A stretch of 64,000 nt of DNA from Patescibacteria group bacterium (GCA_023484515.1 JAMDAY010000019.1:30483-94482); one strand, 5' to 3'. Positions 4,146 through 59,208 are shown, counted from the first letter of the stretch. Notes: generated by a model not told the origin, from the sequence alone. Translations and numbers: made by a program.

Positions 4146-4179
4146 CATTTCTTGCACGCTATATAGCGTGCAAGAAATG
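4146..4179. repeat. 34-bp perfect palindrome, family E (CATTTCTTGCACGCTATATAGCGTGCAAGAAATG)
   Basis: Perfect inverted repeat. A near-identical copy sits at 46942-46975. Confidence 0.7.
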
Positions 4180-7575: not shown

Positions 7576-7650
7576 AAAGGGCGTCTTTCCGGGTATGCAG
7601 GCATTAGATTATTAGATGTTATCCATTACAGTAATACTCATTATTCAGTA

Positions 7651-7749
7651 TGAAGGCCGCCCTCTGGGATAATCTGTCTTAAGATTGATAATAGATGATG
7701 ATCATAGACTGATAATCTAAAGTTCGTTATTCCCAGAGGGCGGCCTTCA
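7651..7749. repeat. family B inverted-repeat element, copy B1 (19-bp perfect GC-rich arms TGAAGGCCGCCCTCTGGGA, AT-rich ~60-nt centre)
   Basis: Perfect terminal inverted repeat. Related copies at 15100, 48771 and 50849. A degenerate partial copy sits at 7578-7650. Confidence 0.75.
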
Positions 7750-7769
7750 AAACTCAGGCCTGTTGTAAT

Positions 7770-13127: not shown

Positions 13128-13424
13128 ATTTTTATGTATTTTTAATTCTAAATTTTTGATATTAATAAGATACGATAATTATAACATATAACGGCGGTTG
13201 TTCAAAATTGGGCGCTGCTGGCAGCGAATTCGCCTTTTCGGAAGAGGCCTGTTAATGGCAGGCTGATTATCAACTTTGGGCGACGGTGCCCATCTGGGAC
13301 AATTTTGCTTAAGTTTGGTTGATGATGATTATTATCCGGTAATCTTAAAAACATTTATCCCAGATGGGCACCGTCACTGCCATATACCTTTGCCCTATTT
13401 GGCCAAGGATACCCATCTCACTCC

Positions 13425-14792: not shown

Positions 14793-14841
14793 AGCCGCTG
14801 AATTAATGCTGATAGGGACGCTGAATGGACGCTGATGGGGA

Positions 14842-14860
14842 GGGCGGATAGTATCCGCCC
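14842..14860. repeat. family D hairpin GGGCGGATAGTATCCGCCC, copy 1
   Basis: Identical copy at 14918-14936. A copy with longer arms sits inside the transposase gene at 26723-26749. Confidence 0.65.
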
Positions 14861-14917
14861 ATACAAAATGGCAGCGAACTGATATAGGGCGTCTGTGGCG
14901 GATTGGATGGATGTAGG

Positions 14918-14936
14918 GGGCGGATAGTATCCGCCC
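14918..14936. repeat. family D hairpin GGGCGGATAGTATCCGCCC, copy 2
   Basis: See copy 1. Confidence 0.65.
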
Positions 14937-15039
14937 GTACCAAAGATTACCAATGACAATACCAGCCCATTGAGCGGCCCTTTCAGGCGTCATTCCGGAT
15001 ACCCCGACGTTATGTCGGGGTATCCGGAATCTTGTTCTC

Positions 15040-15069
15040 TGAACGCCTCAACCGGCGTTGAGGCGTTCA
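15040..15069. repeat. family C palindrome, copy 2 (perfect 13-bp arms)
   Basis: TGAACGCCTCAACCGGCGTTGAGGCGTTCA. Confidence 0.75.
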
Positions 15070-15099
15070 GCCAACTAACCCAACCGCTCCTACTGGCTA

Positions 15100-15195
15100 T
15101 GAAGGCGCCCTTCCGGGATCAGCCTGCTTAAGTTAGATTAACAATGATCAACATCCAATTATCTAAAGTTAGTTTATCCCGGAAGGGCGCCTTCA
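15100..15195. repeat. family B inverted-repeat element, copy B2 (arms TGAAGGCGCCCTTCCGGGA)
   Basis: 19-bp perfect inverted terminal arms, AT-rich centre with ttagatta..atctaaag. Confidence 0.75.
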
Positions 15196-15393
15196 CAACC
15201 CCATCGCCTCCTTGCGCAATGGGTACCCTTGAGCCCTTTCCGTATATCCGCAGATATCCGTATTCCGTAAAAATTCAGCCTTGCCAAAGCCGAATTTTCT
15301 TGATAAAATAAAGGTATACGAACGTATACCATATTAAAATAATACCCCTTAACAACTATTTCAGTAAAGCCCGGTTATCCACAATAAAAAACG

Positions 15394-16972: not shown

Positions 16973-17416
16973 TTGCTCGTGCCGGATGGCAATATGTCTT
17001 TTTTTGTGGGCCAGAAATATCATTACAAGAAAAACAAAATATCCGGTCCAAAACTGGTAATAACTAAATAAGGCAAAACCGGTAAAAAGCGAAGTTATGA
17101 GCAGGTCAAAAAACAAATCCAGCAAAAACCAAAAAATCGCCACAAACATTGATTCCAGGAAATTTATTACCCCCAACCGGCGCACTGCGGCCGCAGTGAT
17201 TACCATTACCGCTATCCAATAATAAAAACTGAACAGGGAATTGTTAAAACCCCAGTATTTGAAAAATAACACTTTCAGCGCAATCAGCAGGAACAACTGC
17301 CAGAACGTATAAATTGCCAATTTTTTAAAAGTCATATTAAACTGCCGCTCCTTGAAGAGTTTCTCCCCGGATAAATTTTCTTTAATATGGATTTGATAAT
17401 AATCATCAATCAACAA
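16949..17416 (-). CDS. polytopic membrane hypothetical protein
   Basis: Several TM helices; His-rich C-terminus. Confidence 0.4.
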   Translation of the reverse strand: MLIDDYYQIHIKENLSGEKLFKERQFNMTFKKLAIYTFWQLFLLIALKVLFFKYWGFNNSLFSFYYWIAVMVITAAAVRRLGVINFLESMFVAIFWFLLDLFFDLLITSLFTGFALFSYYQFWTGYFVFLVMIFLAHKKRHIAIRHEQAKHHGHH

Positions 17417-17471
17417 TCTAAAGATCGCTTGCCCCGGAAGAGACCCTTCAAGGAGATGCGCATTAGGTAAA

Positions 17472-22972: not shown

Positions 22973-23145
22973 AGGCTAATTTTACCAAATTTAGCCAATA
23001 TAAAAAAGTGCAATCTTATTAATTTTAAGATTGTAAGATTGCGACGAATCGCTGCAAATTATGAGGAACACCTGCTGGGATTATTCATCCGATGACCAAC
23101 GAACATTAGTTGCGGGCTGATAGCTTGGCGAGGACATACGCCTCC

Positions 23146-23174
23146 TGAACGCCTCAACCGCGGTTGAGGCGTTC
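23146..23174. repeat. family C palindrome, copy 3
   Basis: TGAACGCCTCAACCGCGGTTGAGGCGTTC. A second palindrome cggctcaacgcgttgagccg lies ~160 bp downstream. Confidence 0.7.
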
Positions 23175-23414
23175 CCGCCATATAGGCCAGGCGGGTCTGT
23201 AGTTGCCTGATTCATCAGGCCCCTTTGCAAAGCTGAGTGAACTAAGCGACTGCTAGCTTAAGGGACAAGCCATGCTGCTGCGCGAACAATCATGGCAGGC
23301 CGCGACCGCTTGTGATCCGTTCGGCTATCTTTTAACGGCTCAACGCGTTGAGCCGTTGGAAACTATGCTGCCTGGCATTGGCTTTTAAACATTCCATGGG
23401 GTCCTGCAAAATAA

Positions 23415-26441: not shown

Positions 26442-26479
26442 TAATTAGTTCTATGCATAAGTATTATACCATATTTAAT

Positions 26480-26503
26480 TGCAGGGGCAGGTTTCCAAAC
26501 CTG
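26480..26503. repeat. perfect hairpin palindrome AGGGGCAGGTTTCCAAACCTGCCCCT abutting the 3' end of the transposase gene
   Basis: 11-bp perfect stem, read directly. Confidence 0.6.
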
Positions 26504-26506
26504 CCC

Positions 26507-27010
26507 CTAACGGATAATGGTATTTTTCGGATGATATTTATCCAATTTCCACTTTAAAGGATTGTTGATAATATATTCACGGATTTTATCCAAAGATTCT
26601 TCCTTACGGATAACATGGTCGTAAAAAGATTTGTGCCAAGCGAAATTATTATCCGTAATATGTATTGCTTTAGAAGAAACTCTTTTAAACGATCCTACCA
26701 TTTGTGATATCGACGGCCTCTTGTAGGGGCGGATAATATCCGCCCCTACATCGCCTATTACGATTATGCCATGCACGTGATTCGGCATCACCCTGAACAC
26801 ATCCAAACTTATGCCTTTATAATACTTCGGAATTTCTTTCCAAAACTTTTCCGCGATTTTTCCCCATTCGTTTAAAATCATTTCTCCTTTTATTACCTCG
26901 CCAAAACAACACCGCATATCCTTCGCGCAAACCGTGACAAAATAAAATCCCGGCCGGGAATAGTCGTATTGCTTTAAACGATTTGCTTTCCTTTGCGGCA
27001 ATCCCTCCAT
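26507..27010 (-). CDS. IS200-like Y1 (HUH) transposase / REP-associated tyrosine transposase-like protein
   Basis: HUH motif MPNHVHGIIVI and C-terminal catalytic-Tyr region WHKSFYDHVIRKEESLDKIREYIINNP. A 27-bp perfect palindrome lies inside the CDS at 26723-26749. Confidence 0.65.
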   Translation of the reverse strand: MEGLPQRKANRLKQYDYSRPGFYFVTVCAKDMRCCFGEVIKGEMILNEWGKIAEKFWKEIPKYYKGISLDVFRVMPNHVHGIIVIGDVGADIIRPYKRPSISQMVGSFKRVSSKAIHITDNNFAWHKSFYDHVIRKEESLDKIREYIINNPLKWKLDKYHPKNTIIR

Positions 27011-27022
27011 TATTCCTCAATT

Positions 27023-27703
27023 TTATCCTTTTAATAACTTCCTATGTTTTACGAATTCATAAAGAGGGCCAATAAACATACCTGTTAAAAAGTACCAGAT
27101 ATATTCCCCAAATGGTATCCCAAAATACAACCTTGCATACCATTGATGGGGCAAAAACCAAAAGCGCTGGATATATCCCGGGAAGAATAAAAAAAGCAAA
27201 AGATAAATTCCAATACCTATAAAAAGCACCCATAAACCGCTATAAATCGCGTTTCTAATTAGATCTTTACGGGCATACAACATATAACCAATAAACAGTA
27301 AATAAGAAATGGATGTAGAATAAAATGAACTCAAATTAAAAAAGTAAAAAAGAACTAAACAAAGTAAAATAAATCCCAATAAAAAAGCCAGCGGTTCGCT
27401 TGGAGGGAAGGTTTTTGACTTTTTCCTACTTAGATGCATTTTATAAACTTCCTCATAAATTACCGCCGCGACCCCCCCAATACTAAAACCAATGATAAAA
27501 TCCTCAACACCAATGCGAGTATGAGTAATTGTTAAAGGACGCCACCAATCAATAACGTAAATTTTCTCACTGGCAAGGCCGCCTATTCCAAACAAGCAGC
27601 TGATCAACAACATTTCGTGCCTGATGCTTTTCCTCGTCAAAAAAACAACCAGCCAAACTACAAAGAATAGCAAAGACCAAATAAGATAAAAATATTCCTT
27701 CAT
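27023..27703 (-). CDS. polytopic membrane hypothetical protein, AT-rich codon usage
   Basis: 6-7 TM helices; no motif recognised. Confidence 0.4.
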   Translation of the reverse strand: MKEYFYLIWSLLFFVVWLVVFLTRKSIRHEMLLISCLFGIGGLASEKIYVIDWWRPLTITHTRIGVEDFIIGFSIGGVAAVIYEEVYKMHLSRKKSKTFPPSEPLAFLLGFILLCLVLFYFFNLSSFYSTSISYLLFIGYMLYARKDLIRNAIYSGLWVLFIGIGIYLLLFLFFPGYIQRFWFLPHQWYARLYFGIPFGEYIWYFLTGMFIGPLYEFVKHRKLLKG

Positions 27704-38660: not shown

Positions 38661-38784
38661 GCCGATAACTGCAAAATTACGCAGATATTTACGCGTATAA
38701 ATTAAGTTTGCCTATTTTTATTTCAGGATTCGCTTTTGAATACTATAATTTTGTCAATTTTGCTTAATTTTGTCAATTTTGTCA

Positions 38785-40383
38785 TTATTCTATCAACTCT
38801 CCCCCGAAAATCTTAAGCGCGTCGGTTATAGCCGAGGCCGGAGAAGCTGTTTCCTCGCTGCTTTCCTTGGCCACTTGGGACAATATGTTAATTTTTTTGC
38901 CCAGAACTTCTTCCAGGGCTTGGCAAATTATGGCGCGGTTTTTCGCGTTTTCCAAATTCTGCTTATGGAATAAGAACTTTACTCCCAAGACCGCCGCGTT
39001 TCCCCGGACATCTATAGCGGGAGAATTCTTTACCAAATTGGCTAAGGGGCTATTAATGGCTTTTATTTTTTCCACGACCTGAGGCCAAACTTGCTGTAAT
39101 TCTTCCAAACTTGCCGGAGGACCCCCAACGCGCGAAACTGTTTCTTCTGCAAAACTGTTAGATAAATTTTGGACTTCCAGGGTGGCGCTGGAAACCTTAG
39201 GCGGCGCGGTATTTGCCTGGTATTTTACCGAAGCGGATTCCGCAACTATTTCTTGGGGCCGGGCAGGCGCAACGGCTGAAGTCTTTTTATAAACCGCCTC
39301 CAGGCCGGCCAGCAACAGCGGAATATCCGGCCGCGGGGACGCGGCCAAATCTTTAAACGACTTTAAAAAGAGCCTGACCGTAAATATCAGTTCATTGGCG
39401 GAAAATTTTCCAGCTAAATCCTGCAATTTGCTTTCCGCCGCAGCCGAAGGCAGCCCGGCCGCCGCTCCGCTGACCTTAAAAATTAAGGCCTTCCTTAAAT
39501 ATTCCAAAAAATCCTTGTTTAAAATTTGGAAATCCAAGCCCTTTTCCAGTAAGGAGTCAAAAAACGCGGGAATGTCCCCGGCTTTTCCCAGGGCAATCAG
39601 TTCCAACAGATTTTCGCAAACCGCAATATCCGTAATTCCCAGCAATTGCTGGCAGTCAGCCAGGGTGCAATCGCCGCCCAAGGTTGCTATTTTATCCAAC
39701 AGGGATAAAGAGTCGCGGACGCTGCCTTCGGCGTTTTGCGCTACCAGTTTTATGGCTTCTTCAGGCAGTTTTATATTTTCCGCCTTGAGGATTTTAGCCA
39801 AATGACTTTCCAAATCTTCCGAAGCCAGCCTTTTAAAATCGAAACGCTGAGTGCGGGATACAATGGTAGCGGGAACTTTGTTAACTTCCGTAGTGGCCAA
39901 AATAAAAATAGCATGGCTGGGCGGTTCTTCCAGGGTCTTAAGCAGCGCGTTAAACGCACCCTTGGACAGCATATGCACTTCGTCTATAATGAACACCTTA
40001 TATTTTCCCGCAGCCGGATTAAATTTTACGTGCTCTATGAGGTCGCGGATATTGTCCACGCCGGTGTTGGAGGCCGCATCTATCTCCACCAAATCCAAAA
40101 AATTTCCCTCTTCAATCTGCTTGCAAACCTGGCATTGACCGCAGGCGTCACCATTGTTTTTTTTGGATCTTAAATCTTGGTTCTTGGATCTTTCAACACA
40201 ATTCACCGCTTTTGCCAAAATCCTGGCAACCGACGTCTTCCCTACCCCGCGCGTGCCGGTGAACAAATAAGCATGGCTAACCTGCTCGCTTTCCACCTGG
40301 TTCTTAAGCGTTCGGATGATATATTTTTGGTTTAAGACCTCGGCAAAATTTCGCGGCCGGTATTTGCGGTATAAAACTGCCAT
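38785..40383 (-). CDS. dnaX: DNA polymerase III subunit gamma/tau
   Basis: Walker A GTRGVGKTS and the Zn module CGQCQVC. An in-frame insert ERSKNQDLRSKKNN is encoded by a (ttggatctt)-type repeat. Confidence 0.9.
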   Translation of the reverse strand: MAVLYRKYRPRNFAEVLNQKYIIRTLKNQVESEQVSHAYLFTGTRGVGKTSVARILAKAVNCVERSKNQDLRSKKNNGDACGQCQVCKQIEEGNFLDLVEIDAASNTGVDNIRDLIEHVKFNPAAGKYKVFIIDEVHMLSKGAFNALLKTLEEPPSHAIFILATTEVNKVPATIVSRTQRFDFKRLASEDLESHLAKILKAENIKLPEEAIKLVAQNAEGSVRDSLSLLDKIATLGGDCTLADCQQLLGITDIAVCENLLELIALGKAGDIPAFFDSLLEKGLDFQILNKDFLEYLRKALIFKVSGAAAGLPSAAAESKLQDLAGKFSANELIFTVRLFLKSFKDLAASPRPDIPLLLAGLEAVYKKTSAVAPARPQEIVAESASVKYQANTAPPKVSSATLEVQNLSNSFAEETVSRVGGPPASLEELQQVWPQVVEKIKAINSPLANLVKNSPAIDVRGNAAVLGVKFLFHKQNLENAKNRAIICQALEEVLGKKINILSQVAKESSEETASPASAITDALKIFGGELIE

Positions 40384-40859
40384 TTTTTGATATCTAATAA
40401 TTCATGAATAGCCAATACATTATAGCATAAATATAAATTTTATAATATTGCAAAGTTTGCCAAAAATAATAAAAATCCAAAGAATATGCAAGAAAGGAGC
40501 AGGAGGATGCTAAAGGCCGCGCTTTATTATGAAGCCCGCAGCCATAATCGGCGGACTAATTGTCATGCTTGTGGTTGGGATTTTTTCCCTCAAATACGAA
40601 GTCCGCAATGAATGAAACAAGAGGGCTCGCCGCCAAAACACACTTACCCAAAGCCGCGAGCCTCTACACTTATTATGGCCTTATGTGCTTGGAAGCGATT
40701 ACCTCTCCCCATTCAGGGACTAAGAATTACAAAAGGCGGCCTCCGGGACAAGCAAGCTTCAGATCGCAAAGCGCTGACCGCCATTCGCCTATCTTAAGGC
40801 GGGCGATCCCGGAAGGAGCCCTTCATCTGCGGCATTGATTAACAACCAATTTATTTAAC

Positions 40860-46918: not shown

Positions 46919-46941
46919 CTTTTTATTCTTTAAAACTTAGG

Positions 46942-46975
46942 CATTTCTTGCATGCTATATAGCATGCAACAAATG
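46942..46975. repeat. family E palindrome, copy 2 (CATTTCTTGCATGCTATATAGCATGCAAcAAATG)
   Basis: Near-identical to 4146-4179. Confidence 0.7.
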
Positions 46976-46985
46976 TCTAAAAAAT

Positions 46986-48671: not shown

Positions 48672-48727
48672 GCTGTTATTATGGCAGATTTTGGGGAAAA
48701 ATAAAACTGCTTTAAATAAGGCGGTTT

Positions 48728-48754
48728 GAACGCCACAACACGTGTTGAGGCGTT
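48728..48754. repeat. family C palindrome, copy 4 (one arm mismatch)
   Basis: GAACGCCaCAACACGTGTTGAGGCGTT. Confidence 0.6.
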
Positions 48755-48770
48755 GGGATTTTTGGCAGTA

Positions 48771-48862
48771 AAGACGCCCTTCCGGGACCAGCCTTTTAAA
48801 GTCAGATTAATTATGATTAATATCTGATAATCTAAAGTTTGTATATACCGGAAGACCGTCTT
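48771..48862. repeat. family B inverted-repeat element, copy B3 (arms 13/15 matched)
   Basis: aagacgcccttccgg ... ccggaagaccgtctt with an AT-rich centre containing gataatctaaag. Confidence 0.6.
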
Positions 48863-49006
48863 CACCCCGGAGACGCCGGCTTTGGCTATTTTTGCCGGGA
48901 TGGACCGCGACCGACGCGGCCCGCACTACATTTGATGCATGAATAAAAGCGGCCAGTGGCCGCTTTTGAAATCTTTTAATCTTTCAATTTTCAATTCTTA
49001 AATTTG

Positions 49007-50732: not shown

Positions 50733-50848
50733 ATATATTTTGCTAGAACTTTAGGGAATACGGATCCGTCAGCCGCGTAAATTCATCCTGCGTGGCTATC
50801 TGGCGGAGTACGAATATACGGATGTAGAATCCTTGATCCTTTCCGGCA

Positions 50849-50945
50849 GTGAAGGCGCCCTTCCGGGATAAGTGATTTTAAATTGTTAGATGTTGATTAC
50901 TATCAAACTTACTTTAGAAGGCTTGTTCCGGAAGGGCGCCTTCAC
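50849..50945. repeat. family B inverted-repeat element, copy B4, in the rpsE-rplO spacer where rpmD (L30) normally sits
   Basis: 18-bp perfect arms GTGAAGGCGCCCTTCCGG. Confidence 0.75.
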
Positions 50946-50989
50946 CCTCTATCCGTATATCCGTATTAATCCGTATTCCGTAAAAATAA

Positions 50990-52986: not shown

Positions 52987-53091
52987 AAGATTAATTGAAC
53001 AAAAATTAAAAAAATTAAATAAATGACAAAAATAAGGATTCTTTATTGTTTTTATTATTTTTGTTCACTTTTGCCATTTTTGTCATTATTG

Positions 53092-53286
53092 TTACCAAGA
53101 AGCCTTCACCACTCCCGGAATTTCTCCCCTGCTGGCCAGTTCCCTAAAACAGATCCTGCACAAATTAAAGTCCCGCATGTAACCGGCTTTCCTGCCGCAC
53201 TTCCAACACCGCCTGATCTTCCTGGTGGAAAATTTGGGATTCTTTAAGCTTCTCTTGGCTTTTGCAATATGCGCTTGTGTGGCCAT
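53092..53286 (-). CDS. rpsN: 30S ribosomal protein S14 type Z (zinc-binding); start moved to [11 protein letters not shown]
   Basis: [38 protein letters not shown]. Confidence 0.85.
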
Positions 53287-54328: not shown

Positions 54329-54431
54329 AAAATTACATTTAACTATCTCTTTACGGAATATGGACTTTTGCGGATATACGGATTCCGGAGATCCTTTCCG
54401 TATATTCGTATTAATCCGTATTCCGTAAAGC

Positions 54432-54824
54432 TTAAATTACTTCCGGAGCCAGGGAAATTATTTTTTTAAAACCGTCCTCAAACTGGCCTTTGGCCCTTTC
54501 GCGGATCTCTCTGGGGACCGGGCCGAAAATGCGCGTGCCGCGCGGCTCACCGCTCTCTTTGTTCACCAATACGCCGGCATTGTCGTCAAACCTGATGTAA
54601 GAGCCGTCCTTGCGGCGCATTTCCTTGCGGGTCCGGACAATAACCGCATAAATCTTGTCGCCTTTTTTTAAGGCGGAATTCGGGGCGGCCTGCTTGACCG
54701 AGCCGGCTACAATGTCGCCGACCCGCGCAAACCGGTTGCTGTTCTTGCTGTTCACGGAAAAAACATTGACGACCTTTGCGCCGGTATTATCCGCTATTTT
54801 AATCCACGATCTTACTTGTAACAT
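54432..54824 (-). CDS. rplN: 50S ribosomal protein L14
   Basis: KIADNTGAK...IISLAPEVI. Confidence 0.9.
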
Positions 54825-58747: not shown

Positions 58748-58845
58748 AAAAATTATTGAACAAAAGTTAAAAAATTGGCAAAATTGACAAAAGTTTATTG
58801 CATCCTAATTTTATTATTTTTGTCAATTTTGTTCATTTTTGTCAT

Positions 58846-59208
58846 TTAAATTGTCTCTGTCGCCCCTTCTATCTTGTCTCCCTGTTTTAGGGTTACGACC
58901 GCTTTTTTAAAACCGGAAGTTGTGCCGCTAATCCTGCCGTAATTCCTGGCCTTGCCTTTGTTGTTTATTACGTTCACCTGCGTCACCCTGACTTTATAAA
59001 CGCCTTCCACCGCTTTCTTGATTAAAATCTTATTGGCTTCTTTGCGGACCAAAAAAACGTACTTATTGCCTTGCACCAAATGGCTGGCTTTTTCCGAAAC
59101 CCTGGGCTGCACCAAAATTCCGCCAAAAGCGGCAGCCGGTTTTCCCGCGCCGCGCTTTACGGACTGCTGATTCCCCGCTTCTTCTTCTTTTTTGCTGAAT
59201 ATGGCCAT
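58846..59208 (-). CDS. rplW: 50S ribosomal protein L23 (N-terminal extension)
   Basis: L23 core; position in the operon. Confidence 0.85.
   Translation of the reverse strand: MAIFSKKEEEAGNQQSVKRGAGKPAAAFGGILVQPRVSEKASHLVQGNKYVFLVRKEANKILIKKAVEGVYKVRVTQVNVINNKGKARNYGRISGTTSGFKKAVVTLKQGDKIEGATETI

Follow-up and report, generated by a model that had tools for sequence, protein, structure and literature searches.

The stretch of DNA analysed here, henceforth referred to as the window, covers 64,000 nucleotides of a Patescibacteria group bacterium genome (GCA_023484515.1, JAMDAY010000019.1:30483-94482). On its minus strand, within a conserved glycolysis gene cluster, lies an open reading frame (ORF) for a 167-aa protein of the HUH type, and the coding sequence itself contains a perfect palindrome. 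The favoured interpretation, to which a probability of roughly 0.82 is assigned, is that the gene is an intact REP-associated tyrosine transposase (RAYT, or TnpAREP) in or near TnpAY1 subclass 2.4, that it carries its own cognate repetitive extragenic palindrome (REP) in frame, and that it reached the glycolysis cluster as a secondary arrival. The gene, its internal features, and the hairpin at its end are the following:

26507-27010, minus strand: probable intact RAYT/TnpAREP gene, TnpAY1 subclass 2.4-like, 167 aa (from the ORF, the PF01797 match, the fold match, and the motifs)
26771-26782, minus strand: HUH motif codons N77-H78-V79-H80 (NHVH), from the sequence and alignment A1, fitting the NH[IFV]H pattern of subclass 2.4 (PMC6006769, Table 1)
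26722-26750, no strand assigned: in-frame 'double-foot' GTAG REP, TGTAGGGGCGGATA A TATCCGCCCCTACA, a perfect palindrome in the loop between the HUH strand and the next helix
26606-26638, minus strand: W125-R135 (WHKSFYDHVIR), counterpart of the GTAG-guide contacts of E. coli TnpAREP, from profile alignment to 4er8
26558-26575, minus strand: Y motif YIINNP with the presumed catalytic Tyr146, from the sequence, fitting YIxNNP of subclass 2.4
26483-26508, no strand assigned: second REP-type hairpin, AGGGGCAGGTTT CC AAACCTGCCCCT, with degenerate feet, overlapping the TAG stop codon

Placement of the product in the IS200/RAYT superfamily of Y1/HUH proteins, as proposed in the initial annotation of this DNA, was confirmed by a search against Pfam PF01797 (Y1_Tnp, 'Transposase IS200 like'), which gave 26.3 bits over residues 49-150 against a gathering score of 23; the NHVH and YIINNP motifs and the 167-aa ORF were also found as described. 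The sole NCBIfam match of the protein was the RAYT equivalog NF047646 (REP_Tyr_transpos), at 54.3 bits and thus below the cut-off of 80, a threshold that is no test of subclass 2.4 membership in the sense of Quentin et al. The AlphaFold (AF2) model of the protein was confident, with a predicted local distance difference test score (pLDDT) of 91. Its top fold match in the PDB was 4er8_A, E. coli TnpAREP with a REP hairpin (Foldseek E = 2.4e-7, template modelling score 0.61), followed by the IS608, ISDra2, and IS200 transposases, and the 30 fold matches at E ≤ 0.001 comprised TnpAREP and IS200/IS605-family transposase structures. A profile of 50 family sequences compared with all PDB sequences found only TnpAREP (4er8), with no IS200-family TnpA at E ≤ 0.01. 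In total, 820 homologues of the protein were retrieved. The database entry for this exact protein reads 'transposase' and comes from a Patescibacteria metagenome-assembled genome (MAG); its cluster has a single member sequence, on one contig.

Residues N77, H78, and H80 are invariant in alignment A1 (50 sequences, including this one), and Y146, N150, and P151 are nearly so. Every invariant column of that alignment is intact in this protein, including N77, H78, H80, W125, and R135. Profile alignment to 4er8 pairs W125/H126/D131/H132/R135 with W94/Q95/E100/H101/R104 of the E. coli enzyme, the residues that contact its GTAG (PMC6006769). Of these five positions, four are unchanged or carry a conservative replacement (W, D for E, H, R), and the fifth changes from E. 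coli Q95 to H126, at a position occupied by Q in at least 90% of homologues. The protein terminates 16 residues past YIINNP (P151 to R167) and the tails in A1 are variable only, so that no conserved C-terminal tail domain is present.

TnpAY1 subclass 2.4 was defined by Quentin, Siguier, Chandler & Fichant in 2018 (PMC6006769) and corresponds to RAYT group 4 of Bertels et al. 2017. It is described there by NH[IFV]H, WQ, and YIxNNP motifs, a variable beta3-alphaC insertion, an 8-residue insertion where alphaB ends, the lack of a tail domain, and 'long' and 'double foot' REPs (5' GT[AG]G ... C[TC]AC 3'), and REPs inside the gene are its hallmark. The present gene is like subclass 2.4 in its NH[IFV]H and YIxNNP motifs, the lack of a C-terminal tail domain, the variable beta3-alphaC insertion, the in-frame 'double-foot' REP in the gene, a REP-type hairpin beside the gene, an apparently low copy number, and a distribution scattered over many phyla. 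It departs from the published description in having WH for WQ, a length of 167 aa versus a median of 194, a single 9-codon REP insert, and only one flanking REP, which is of another stem type and has degenerate feet; moreover, its host is a MAG of the Patescibacteria (candidate phyla radiation), a group not named in that distribution. Y146-I-I-N-N-P151 carries the class 2 TnpAREP signature Y---NP (PMC6006769) and excludes the patterns of subclasses 2.6 (YIH[QN]NP) and 2.7 (YI[LR][NQ]NP). Judged by its motifs, the gene is best classed as a RAYT and not as an IS200-type insertion sequence (IS), a classification that follows from the match of NHVH/YIINNP, the variable loop, and the in-frame GTAG...CTAC double-foot REP to subclass 2.4.

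It is extremely unlikely that the gene is instead an autonomous IS200/IS605-type insertion sequence with the 3' hairpin and the internal palindrome as its ends. The IS200/IS605 TnpA proteins (IS608, ISDra2, IS200) do have the Y1 HUH fold in common with this protein, the fold matches to them are strong, PF01797 is named for IS200, and the gene lies in a low-GC island inserted in a conserved operon; IS200/IS605 TnpA also acts on single-stranded hairpins with a 5' guide tetranucleotide (PMC8266576). The motifs of IS200, however, are DH[VI]H and Y---Q (PMC6006769), not NHVH and YIINNP, and the family is further marked by multiple copies, left and right subterminal hairpins, and often tnpB, none of which is seen here. 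There is no upstream hairpin, the preceding ORF is only 12 bp away, tnpB is lacking, tblastn found a single copy of the gene in the window, and both the profile result against the PDB and the one-member cluster of the exact protein speak against an IS. The narrower 'IS200-like' label of the initial annotation was thus replaced by class 2 TnpAREP, which fits NHVH with Y---NP and the lack of tnpB, of a second copy, and of IS ends.

The palindrome within the coding sequence, TGTAGGGGCGGATA-A-TATCCGCCCCTACA, is real and somewhat longer than the 27 bp initially reported, having 14+1+14 nucleotides that are 100% complementary. It encodes the nine codons V88-Y96 (VGADIIRPY), folds as single-stranded DNA at -16.9 kcal/mol (z = -7.0 versus shuffles), and, in the model, maps to loop 86-100, which joins strand 78-85 to helix 101-117. 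The in-gene palindrome is a REP, and GTAG-GGGCGGATA-N-TATCCGCCC-CTAC is the probable cognate REP of the enzyme. Besides the gene, its core GGGCGGATA.TATCCGCCC occurs exactly only at 14842 and 14918, as previously claimed, with 0 occurrences expected in shuffles.

Association of such palindromes with the gene was examined in a DNA survey of 80 genomic loci from many phyla, which hold 85 homologous gene copies. The loop after the HUH strand is hypervariable in alignment A1 (VGAGLKPAPT, VGNGLKPFPT, CRGGSRTAPT, VGAQHAAPL, etc.), and a GC-rich perfect palindrome is present in the same loop with a stem of at least 8 bp in 62 of the 85 genes, at least 10 bp in 44, and at least 12 bp in 32. When stems of at least 10 bp were counted with no GC or position filter, 55 palindromes fell in genes, or 1.25/kb versus 0.16/kb outside. 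One or both of the GT[AG]G/C[TC]AC feet are present in at least 52 homologous genes, the commonest form of the in-gene palindromes being GTAGGG(G/A)...CCCTAC. They are read in two codon frames, giving VGA... or xRG... peptides; the third frame would give a TAG stop. Because the loop sequence recurs as a palindrome in homologues and in two reading frames, it is a DNA-level element and not a protein motif. The association of palindrome and gene copies, which had been named beforehand as the test of the initial annotation, is strong among the 85 genes, and the view of the in-gene palindrome as an enzyme-linked DNA-level element of one family with the copies at 14842 and 14918 is upheld.

Related REP copies are also found outside the homologous genes. 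A further, related copy was found elsewhere in the locus (up to 20 kb) for 30 of the 57 genes that carry a REP in the loop, a few of these cases being artefacts of gene boundaries or paralogues; for 21, such a copy stands no more than 400 nt from an end of the gene. In the closest homologue, P0002 (59% identity), the 26-mer GTAGGGGCGGCCAGCGGCCGCCCGCA is found unchanged both within the gene and immediately before its ATG, and typical REPtrons are present both there and in many other homologues. Perfect double-foot REPs occur at 0.0095/kb in other ORF-like sequence of the same loci versus ~0.8/kb in RAYT genes, the latter being a rough estimate from the list of in-gene palindromes, for a ratio of about 80-fold. 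Intragenic REPs were noted earlier by Di Nocera et al. 2013 (PMC3733652), and these, together with the Rickettsia palindromic elements, are likewise short in-frame palindromes tolerated in coding loops. The host genes in that work are unrelated genes, often of DNA repair, whereas the host here is the presumed enzyme of the REP itself, with insertions at one and the same loop throughout the subclass. A REP inside its own gene has already been published for subclass 2.4, so that the present gene is a further example, in a Patescibacteria genome. No later work on subclass 2.4 after PMC6006769 was found in the literature search.

Two of the surveyed loci have compound in-gene REPs. In L002 (4708-4800) a half-REP is followed by a full REP (GTAGGGAACGGTTTGGTAC GGAACGGTTTGAAACCGTTCC CTAC), and in L082 (6258-6307) a REP and a second small hairpin lie within one pair of feet. 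Both suggest local duplication or nested insertion in the loop.

REP type follows protein clade. With the loop masked, protein identity averaged 60.6% for pairs with the same REP type and 47.8% for other pairs (permutation p < 0.0005). The type ...CACGGCATGCCGTG... is read in two frames in related genes, which implies some re-insertion or frame resetting. As a test for a recombination junction at the in-gene REP, the N-terminal (HUH) half was compared with the C-terminal (Tyr) half; identities of the two halves correlated at only r = 0.43, but the standard deviation of their difference (0.077) is that expected from sampling noise for 83 and 63 columns.

Exact matches to the 21-nt core of the in-gene REP are present in at least 120 metagenome stretches. 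Feet (GTA and/or TAC) accompany 78 of 122 matches, and 23% of the matches lie in ORF-like sequence versus 81% for random positions; one is in a RAYT gene. The REP core of the window is thus a genuine, widespread, and mostly extragenic GTAG REP type. The gene as the main location of this REP type was also considered and is argued against by the single RAYT-gene match.

On two metagenome contigs, L100 (6200-6475) and L120 (2614-2946), two REPs with this core lie 255-312 nt apart, the first with only a 5' GTA foot and the second with only a 3' TAC foot. Such a pair is reminiscent of a REPIN-like doublet or of a small REP-bounded element.

Whether the in-gene REP is a passive insertion or a functional cis element under selection at the DNA or RNA level, either as a protected 'seed' copy or as an expression-limiting hairpin, bears on how these patterns are read; the functional alternative is conceivable but doubtful. 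The 28-mer GTAGGGGCGGTTCGCGAACCGCCCCTAC is identical at 28/28 positions and in the same frame in seven genes of four phyla (Nitrospirae, Omnitrophota, Calditrichaeota, and Chloroflexi), while the coding cores of these genes are ~62% identical in DNA (third codon positions 0.28-0.47) and the 30-nt flanks of the REP only 0.27-0.34; an identical 28-nt run at 62% identity has a chance of about 1e-6 per pair. Such constancy speaks for a cis element, but repeated re-insertion or gene conversion from a genomic REP pool made uniform by the specificity of the enzyme would explain the identical 28-mers equally well. In-gene stems equal or exceed most related extragenic ones (25 extragenic stems are shorter, 19 equal, and 4 longer), the in-gene copy of the window is perfect and both extragenic copies are decayed, and the roughly 80-fold density in RAYT genes points the same way. 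All in-gene REPs are held by a single loop, which also favours a cis element, but they lie anywhere from ~7 to 35 residues away from the HUH motif, two frames are used by one REP type, and the close relatives P0005, P0007, and P0011 have no loop insert in alignment A1. Missing inserts, variable positions, and two frames fit repeated gain and loss. The loop was, in addition, modelled as peripheral and of little effect by Quentin et al. (PMC6006769). A stricter version, in which the in-gene REP of subclass 2.4 is obligatory and selected at the DNA level as an inseparable master copy that reseeds REPs after transfer and/or as a self-limiting expression hairpin, is rather unlikely.

The hairpin at the 3' end of the gene was also confirmed, with revised limits. 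It had been placed at 26480-26503 with an 11-bp stem abutting the stop codon; it spans 26483-26508, has a 12-bp stem and a 2-nt loop, and overlaps the stop. The TAG stop occupies 26507-26509, and its A and G (26508 and 26507) lie within the 3' arm of the hairpin. The structure folds at -13 kcal/mol (z = -4.8), its feet TTAG and CTGC are each one position off canonical, and its stem is that of the in-gene REP of homologue L016, GTAGGGGCAGGTTTAAAACCTGCCCCTAC. Di Nocera et al. 2013 (PMC3733652) observed that neighbouring ORFs often take their TAG stop codon from the end of a GTAG REP, and the 3' hairpin here does exactly what is described there.

An intrinsic terminator of the canonical kind was ruled out for this hairpin, as the terminator scan around the gene gave no T-run on either strand and no terminator-like site. 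More broadly, it is highly unlikely that the hairpin is a plain transcription terminator or mRNA-stabilising stem of the gene with no relation to REPs. The GC-rich stem stands right at the 3' end of the ORF, and REPs in general lie downstream of ORFs and are possibly RNA elements (PMC3733652), both of which would agree with such a role. Set against these are the result of the scan, the start of eno ~40 bp further downstream on the same strand, the use of the same stem as the in-gene REP of L016, the VGAGLKPAPT peptides that the stem sequence recurrently encodes in homologues, and the common supply of TAG stops by GTAG REP ends.

The cognate family, D13, has three members in the window: the perfect in-gene copy and two extragenic copies with 9-bp stems and partly degenerate feet, 12 kb from the gene:

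14834-14868, no strand assigned: extragenic copy 1 of the in-gene REP type, core 14842-14860, feet degenerate (family D13)
14910-14944, no strand assigned: extragenic copy 2, core 14918-14936, 5' GTAG foot, GTAC at the 3' end (family D13)

Both copies fall at 14813-14993, within the listed limits of a 522-aa Y-family DNA polymerase ORF (IMS domains), whose listed start at 14993 makes it span them. As the IMS domain starts at residue 75 and the sequence MQSVIMHIDMNSYFASVEQQ near 14812, the two REPs are probably outside the protein, in the 5' leader or promoter region of the polymerase gene just upstream of its likely true start.

Hairpins with GT[AG]G feet number 7 in the window versus 1-6 in shuffles and are not enriched, and the enzyme was dropped as the source of the many palindromes of the window. 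The initial annotation had proposed it as mobiliser of the other REP-like families and of 'family A'; these other repeat families have no GT[AG]G foot and no core in common with the in-gene REP, so that nothing ties them to this enzyme. A whole-window search with Rfam (gathering thresholds) and a tRNA scan found nothing, and no known RNA therefore explains the hairpins.

The low number of REPs leads to a further alternative, an inactive relic in which the RAYT no longer acts and a few decaying REPs are left. This is unlikely. The three cognate REPs per 64 kb, two of them decayed, the degenerate feet of the flanking hairpin, and the Q-to-H change at a GTAG-contact position would fit a relic, as would the report that group 4 RAYTs are tied only to low-abundance flanking 16-mers (PMC5581495). 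The ORF is nevertheless full-length, the A1-invariant columns are intact, Y146 is present, the AF2 model is confident, and the in-gene REP is perfect.

Several of these observations, and others, also count against an intact subclass 2.4-like RAYT with its cognate REP in frame. The RAYT equivalog scores under its cut-off, the usually conserved WQ reads WH, the 3' hairpin has degenerate feet and a stem unlike that of the in-gene REP, no REP or hairpin lies upstream of the gene, and a biochemical test of any subclass 2.4 enzyme was not found in the literature searched. Only three cognate REP copies in 64 kb, with no enrichment of GT[AG]G hairpins, make current activity doubtful. In a REPtron, GT[AG]G-footed REPs that recur elsewhere in the genome flank the gene within ~1 kb; the layout here is one degenerate-foot hairpin on the 3' side and none upstream, a perfect footed REP in the gene, and two related copies 12 kb away.

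The intact RAYT with an in-frame cognate REP nonetheless remains the favoured interpretation. The identity of the protein, its fold, its motifs, the REP nature of the in-gene palindrome, and the family-wide association with palindromes are direct observations; its catalytic activity, cleavage chemistry, and present-day mobility we infer by analogy with work on E. coli and group 3 TnpAREP (PMC8266576). By that analogy, the enzyme would bind the folded single-stranded REP hairpin, and the GTAG foot would serve as the guide that chooses a nearby CT (or CA) cleavage site. Tyr146 would cut, giving a 5'-phosphotyrosine link, with H78 and H80 holding the metal, and strand rejoining or transfer would move, amplify, or recombine cognate REPs in trans. 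A double-foot REP would offer a GTAG foot and a CTAC on each strand, and CTAC contains CT. The in-gene REP may be tolerated since the nine residues that it encodes belong to a peripheral loop. The REP stock of this enzyme would then comprise the perfect in-frame copy, the two decayed copies 12 kb off, and the second REP type over the stop codon, and the gene, with the neighbouring membrane ORF, would have arrived secondarily in a variable low-GC slot of the conserved glycolysis cluster. E. coli TnpAREP itself (subclass 2.2, RAYT group 2; PDB 4ER8) has the same HUH/Tyr core and is the top structural match at 18% identity, but differs in its DHLH and YIHYNP motifs and its C-terminal tail. The E. 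coli REPs are bulged, imperfect, and single-footed, occur in hundreds of copies, and are absent from the tnpAREP gene, unlike those described here.

Gene order on the minus strand is gap, pgk, a 226-aa membrane ORF, the RAYT gene, eno, gpmI, and recJ. The RAYT gene had been described as wedged between eno and pgk; eno is indeed directly downstream, whereas pgk is not adjacent, the membrane ORF intervening:

27023-27703, minus strand: 226-aa multi-pass membrane ORF, in the low-GC island with the RAYT gene (from GC; absent from the pgk-eno slot of relatives)

The membrane ORF has a weak Lycopene_cyc match below the cut-off and is separated from the RAYT gene by the 12-bp gap mentioned above. The RAYT gene has a GC content of 0.39 (0.44 at third codon positions, GC3) and the membrane ORF 0.35, versus 0.49-0.53 (GC3 0.54-0.67) for gap, pgk, eno, and gpmI. 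The low-GC island extends over 26450-27703 (GC 0.32-0.39) within the conserved gap-pgk-eno-gpmI-recJ cluster.

The three closest relatives by enolase (72-78% identity) have the order PfkB, an unannotated ORF, gap, pgk, eno, gpmI, recJ, and RNase H, with an extra PDDEXK_3 gene between gap and pgk in one of the three. Their pgk-eno slot holds nothing, an uncalled spacer, or a Trp-repressor-family gene, and no REPs that could serve as a landing site were found in this spacer. Since the RAYT gene lies in a low-GC island and the slot of relatives is empty or otherwise filled, the gene appears to be a secondary arrival in a variable slot. The closest RAYT homologues are located elsewhere, beside LemA and an M48 peptidase, a placement in keeping with the patchy, transfer-like distribution that has been described for subclass 2.4 (PMC6006769). 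The membrane ORF may have arrived together with the RAYT gene. It was rejected as a conserved RAYT partner, as the closest homologue has an unrelated ORF at its side (BLASTP E = 1.5).

These results add a Patescibacteria example to a described RAYT subclass and make a generic 'transposase' annotation more precise. They also sharpen, through a family-wide comparison, a published and unexplained oddity of subclass 2.4, its own target hairpin in frame: the REP DNA stays constant while the surrounding codons diverge to saturation, and the REP tracks the protein clade. The choice between passive insertion and a functional cis element thereby becomes experimentally answerable by recoding or deletion. 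For annotation, the recurrent VGA...P(L/T/Y) and (C/R)RG...APT peptides are translated REPs and not protein motifs.

Further repeats were observed in the window. An element of ~100 nt is present in seven copies (7639-7754, 13266-13381, 15085-15200, 17340-17455, 40715-40830, 48754-48869, and 50835-50949) and has a 21-bp terminal stem (GAAGGCGCCCTTCCGGGAT ... ATCCCGGAAGGGCGCCTTC) with the conserved loop motifs TTAAG, ATGAT, and ATCTAAAG. In an RNAalifold analysis 15 of its 29 pairs were kept via changes on both sides. It matches no Rfam family, lacks a GTAG foot, resembles a structured RNA or a separate kind of hairpin element, and is probably the 'family A' of the initial annotation. A 31-nt palindrome family, CTGAACGCCTCAACCGGCGTTGAGGCGTTCA, is found at 1609-1639, 15039-15069, 23145-23175, and 48726-48756; the members at 15039 and 48726 precede the 100-nt element by ~25 nt, suggesting that the two form a composite unit. 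A CCGTAT-rich repeat (CTTTCCGTATATCCGTATTAATCCGTATTCCGTAAA) at 15236-15274, 50949-50987, and 54394-54432 (inverted repeat 54349-54430) directly follows the 100-nt element in two cases.

The gpmI-recJ intergenic region (23060-23400) is GC-rich and highly self-complementary, with palindromes at 23147-23174 and 23334-23357, and matches no Rfam family. A 34-bp perfect palindrome, CATTTCTTGCACGCTATATAGCGTGCAAGAAATG, at 4146-4179 has a related imperfect copy at 46937-46980; both are intergenic and look like operators. Finally, short arrays of a 9-nt periodic unit (TTTTGTCAA/TTTTGTCAT) stand upstream of genes at 38740-38798, 53041-53099, and 58799-58858.

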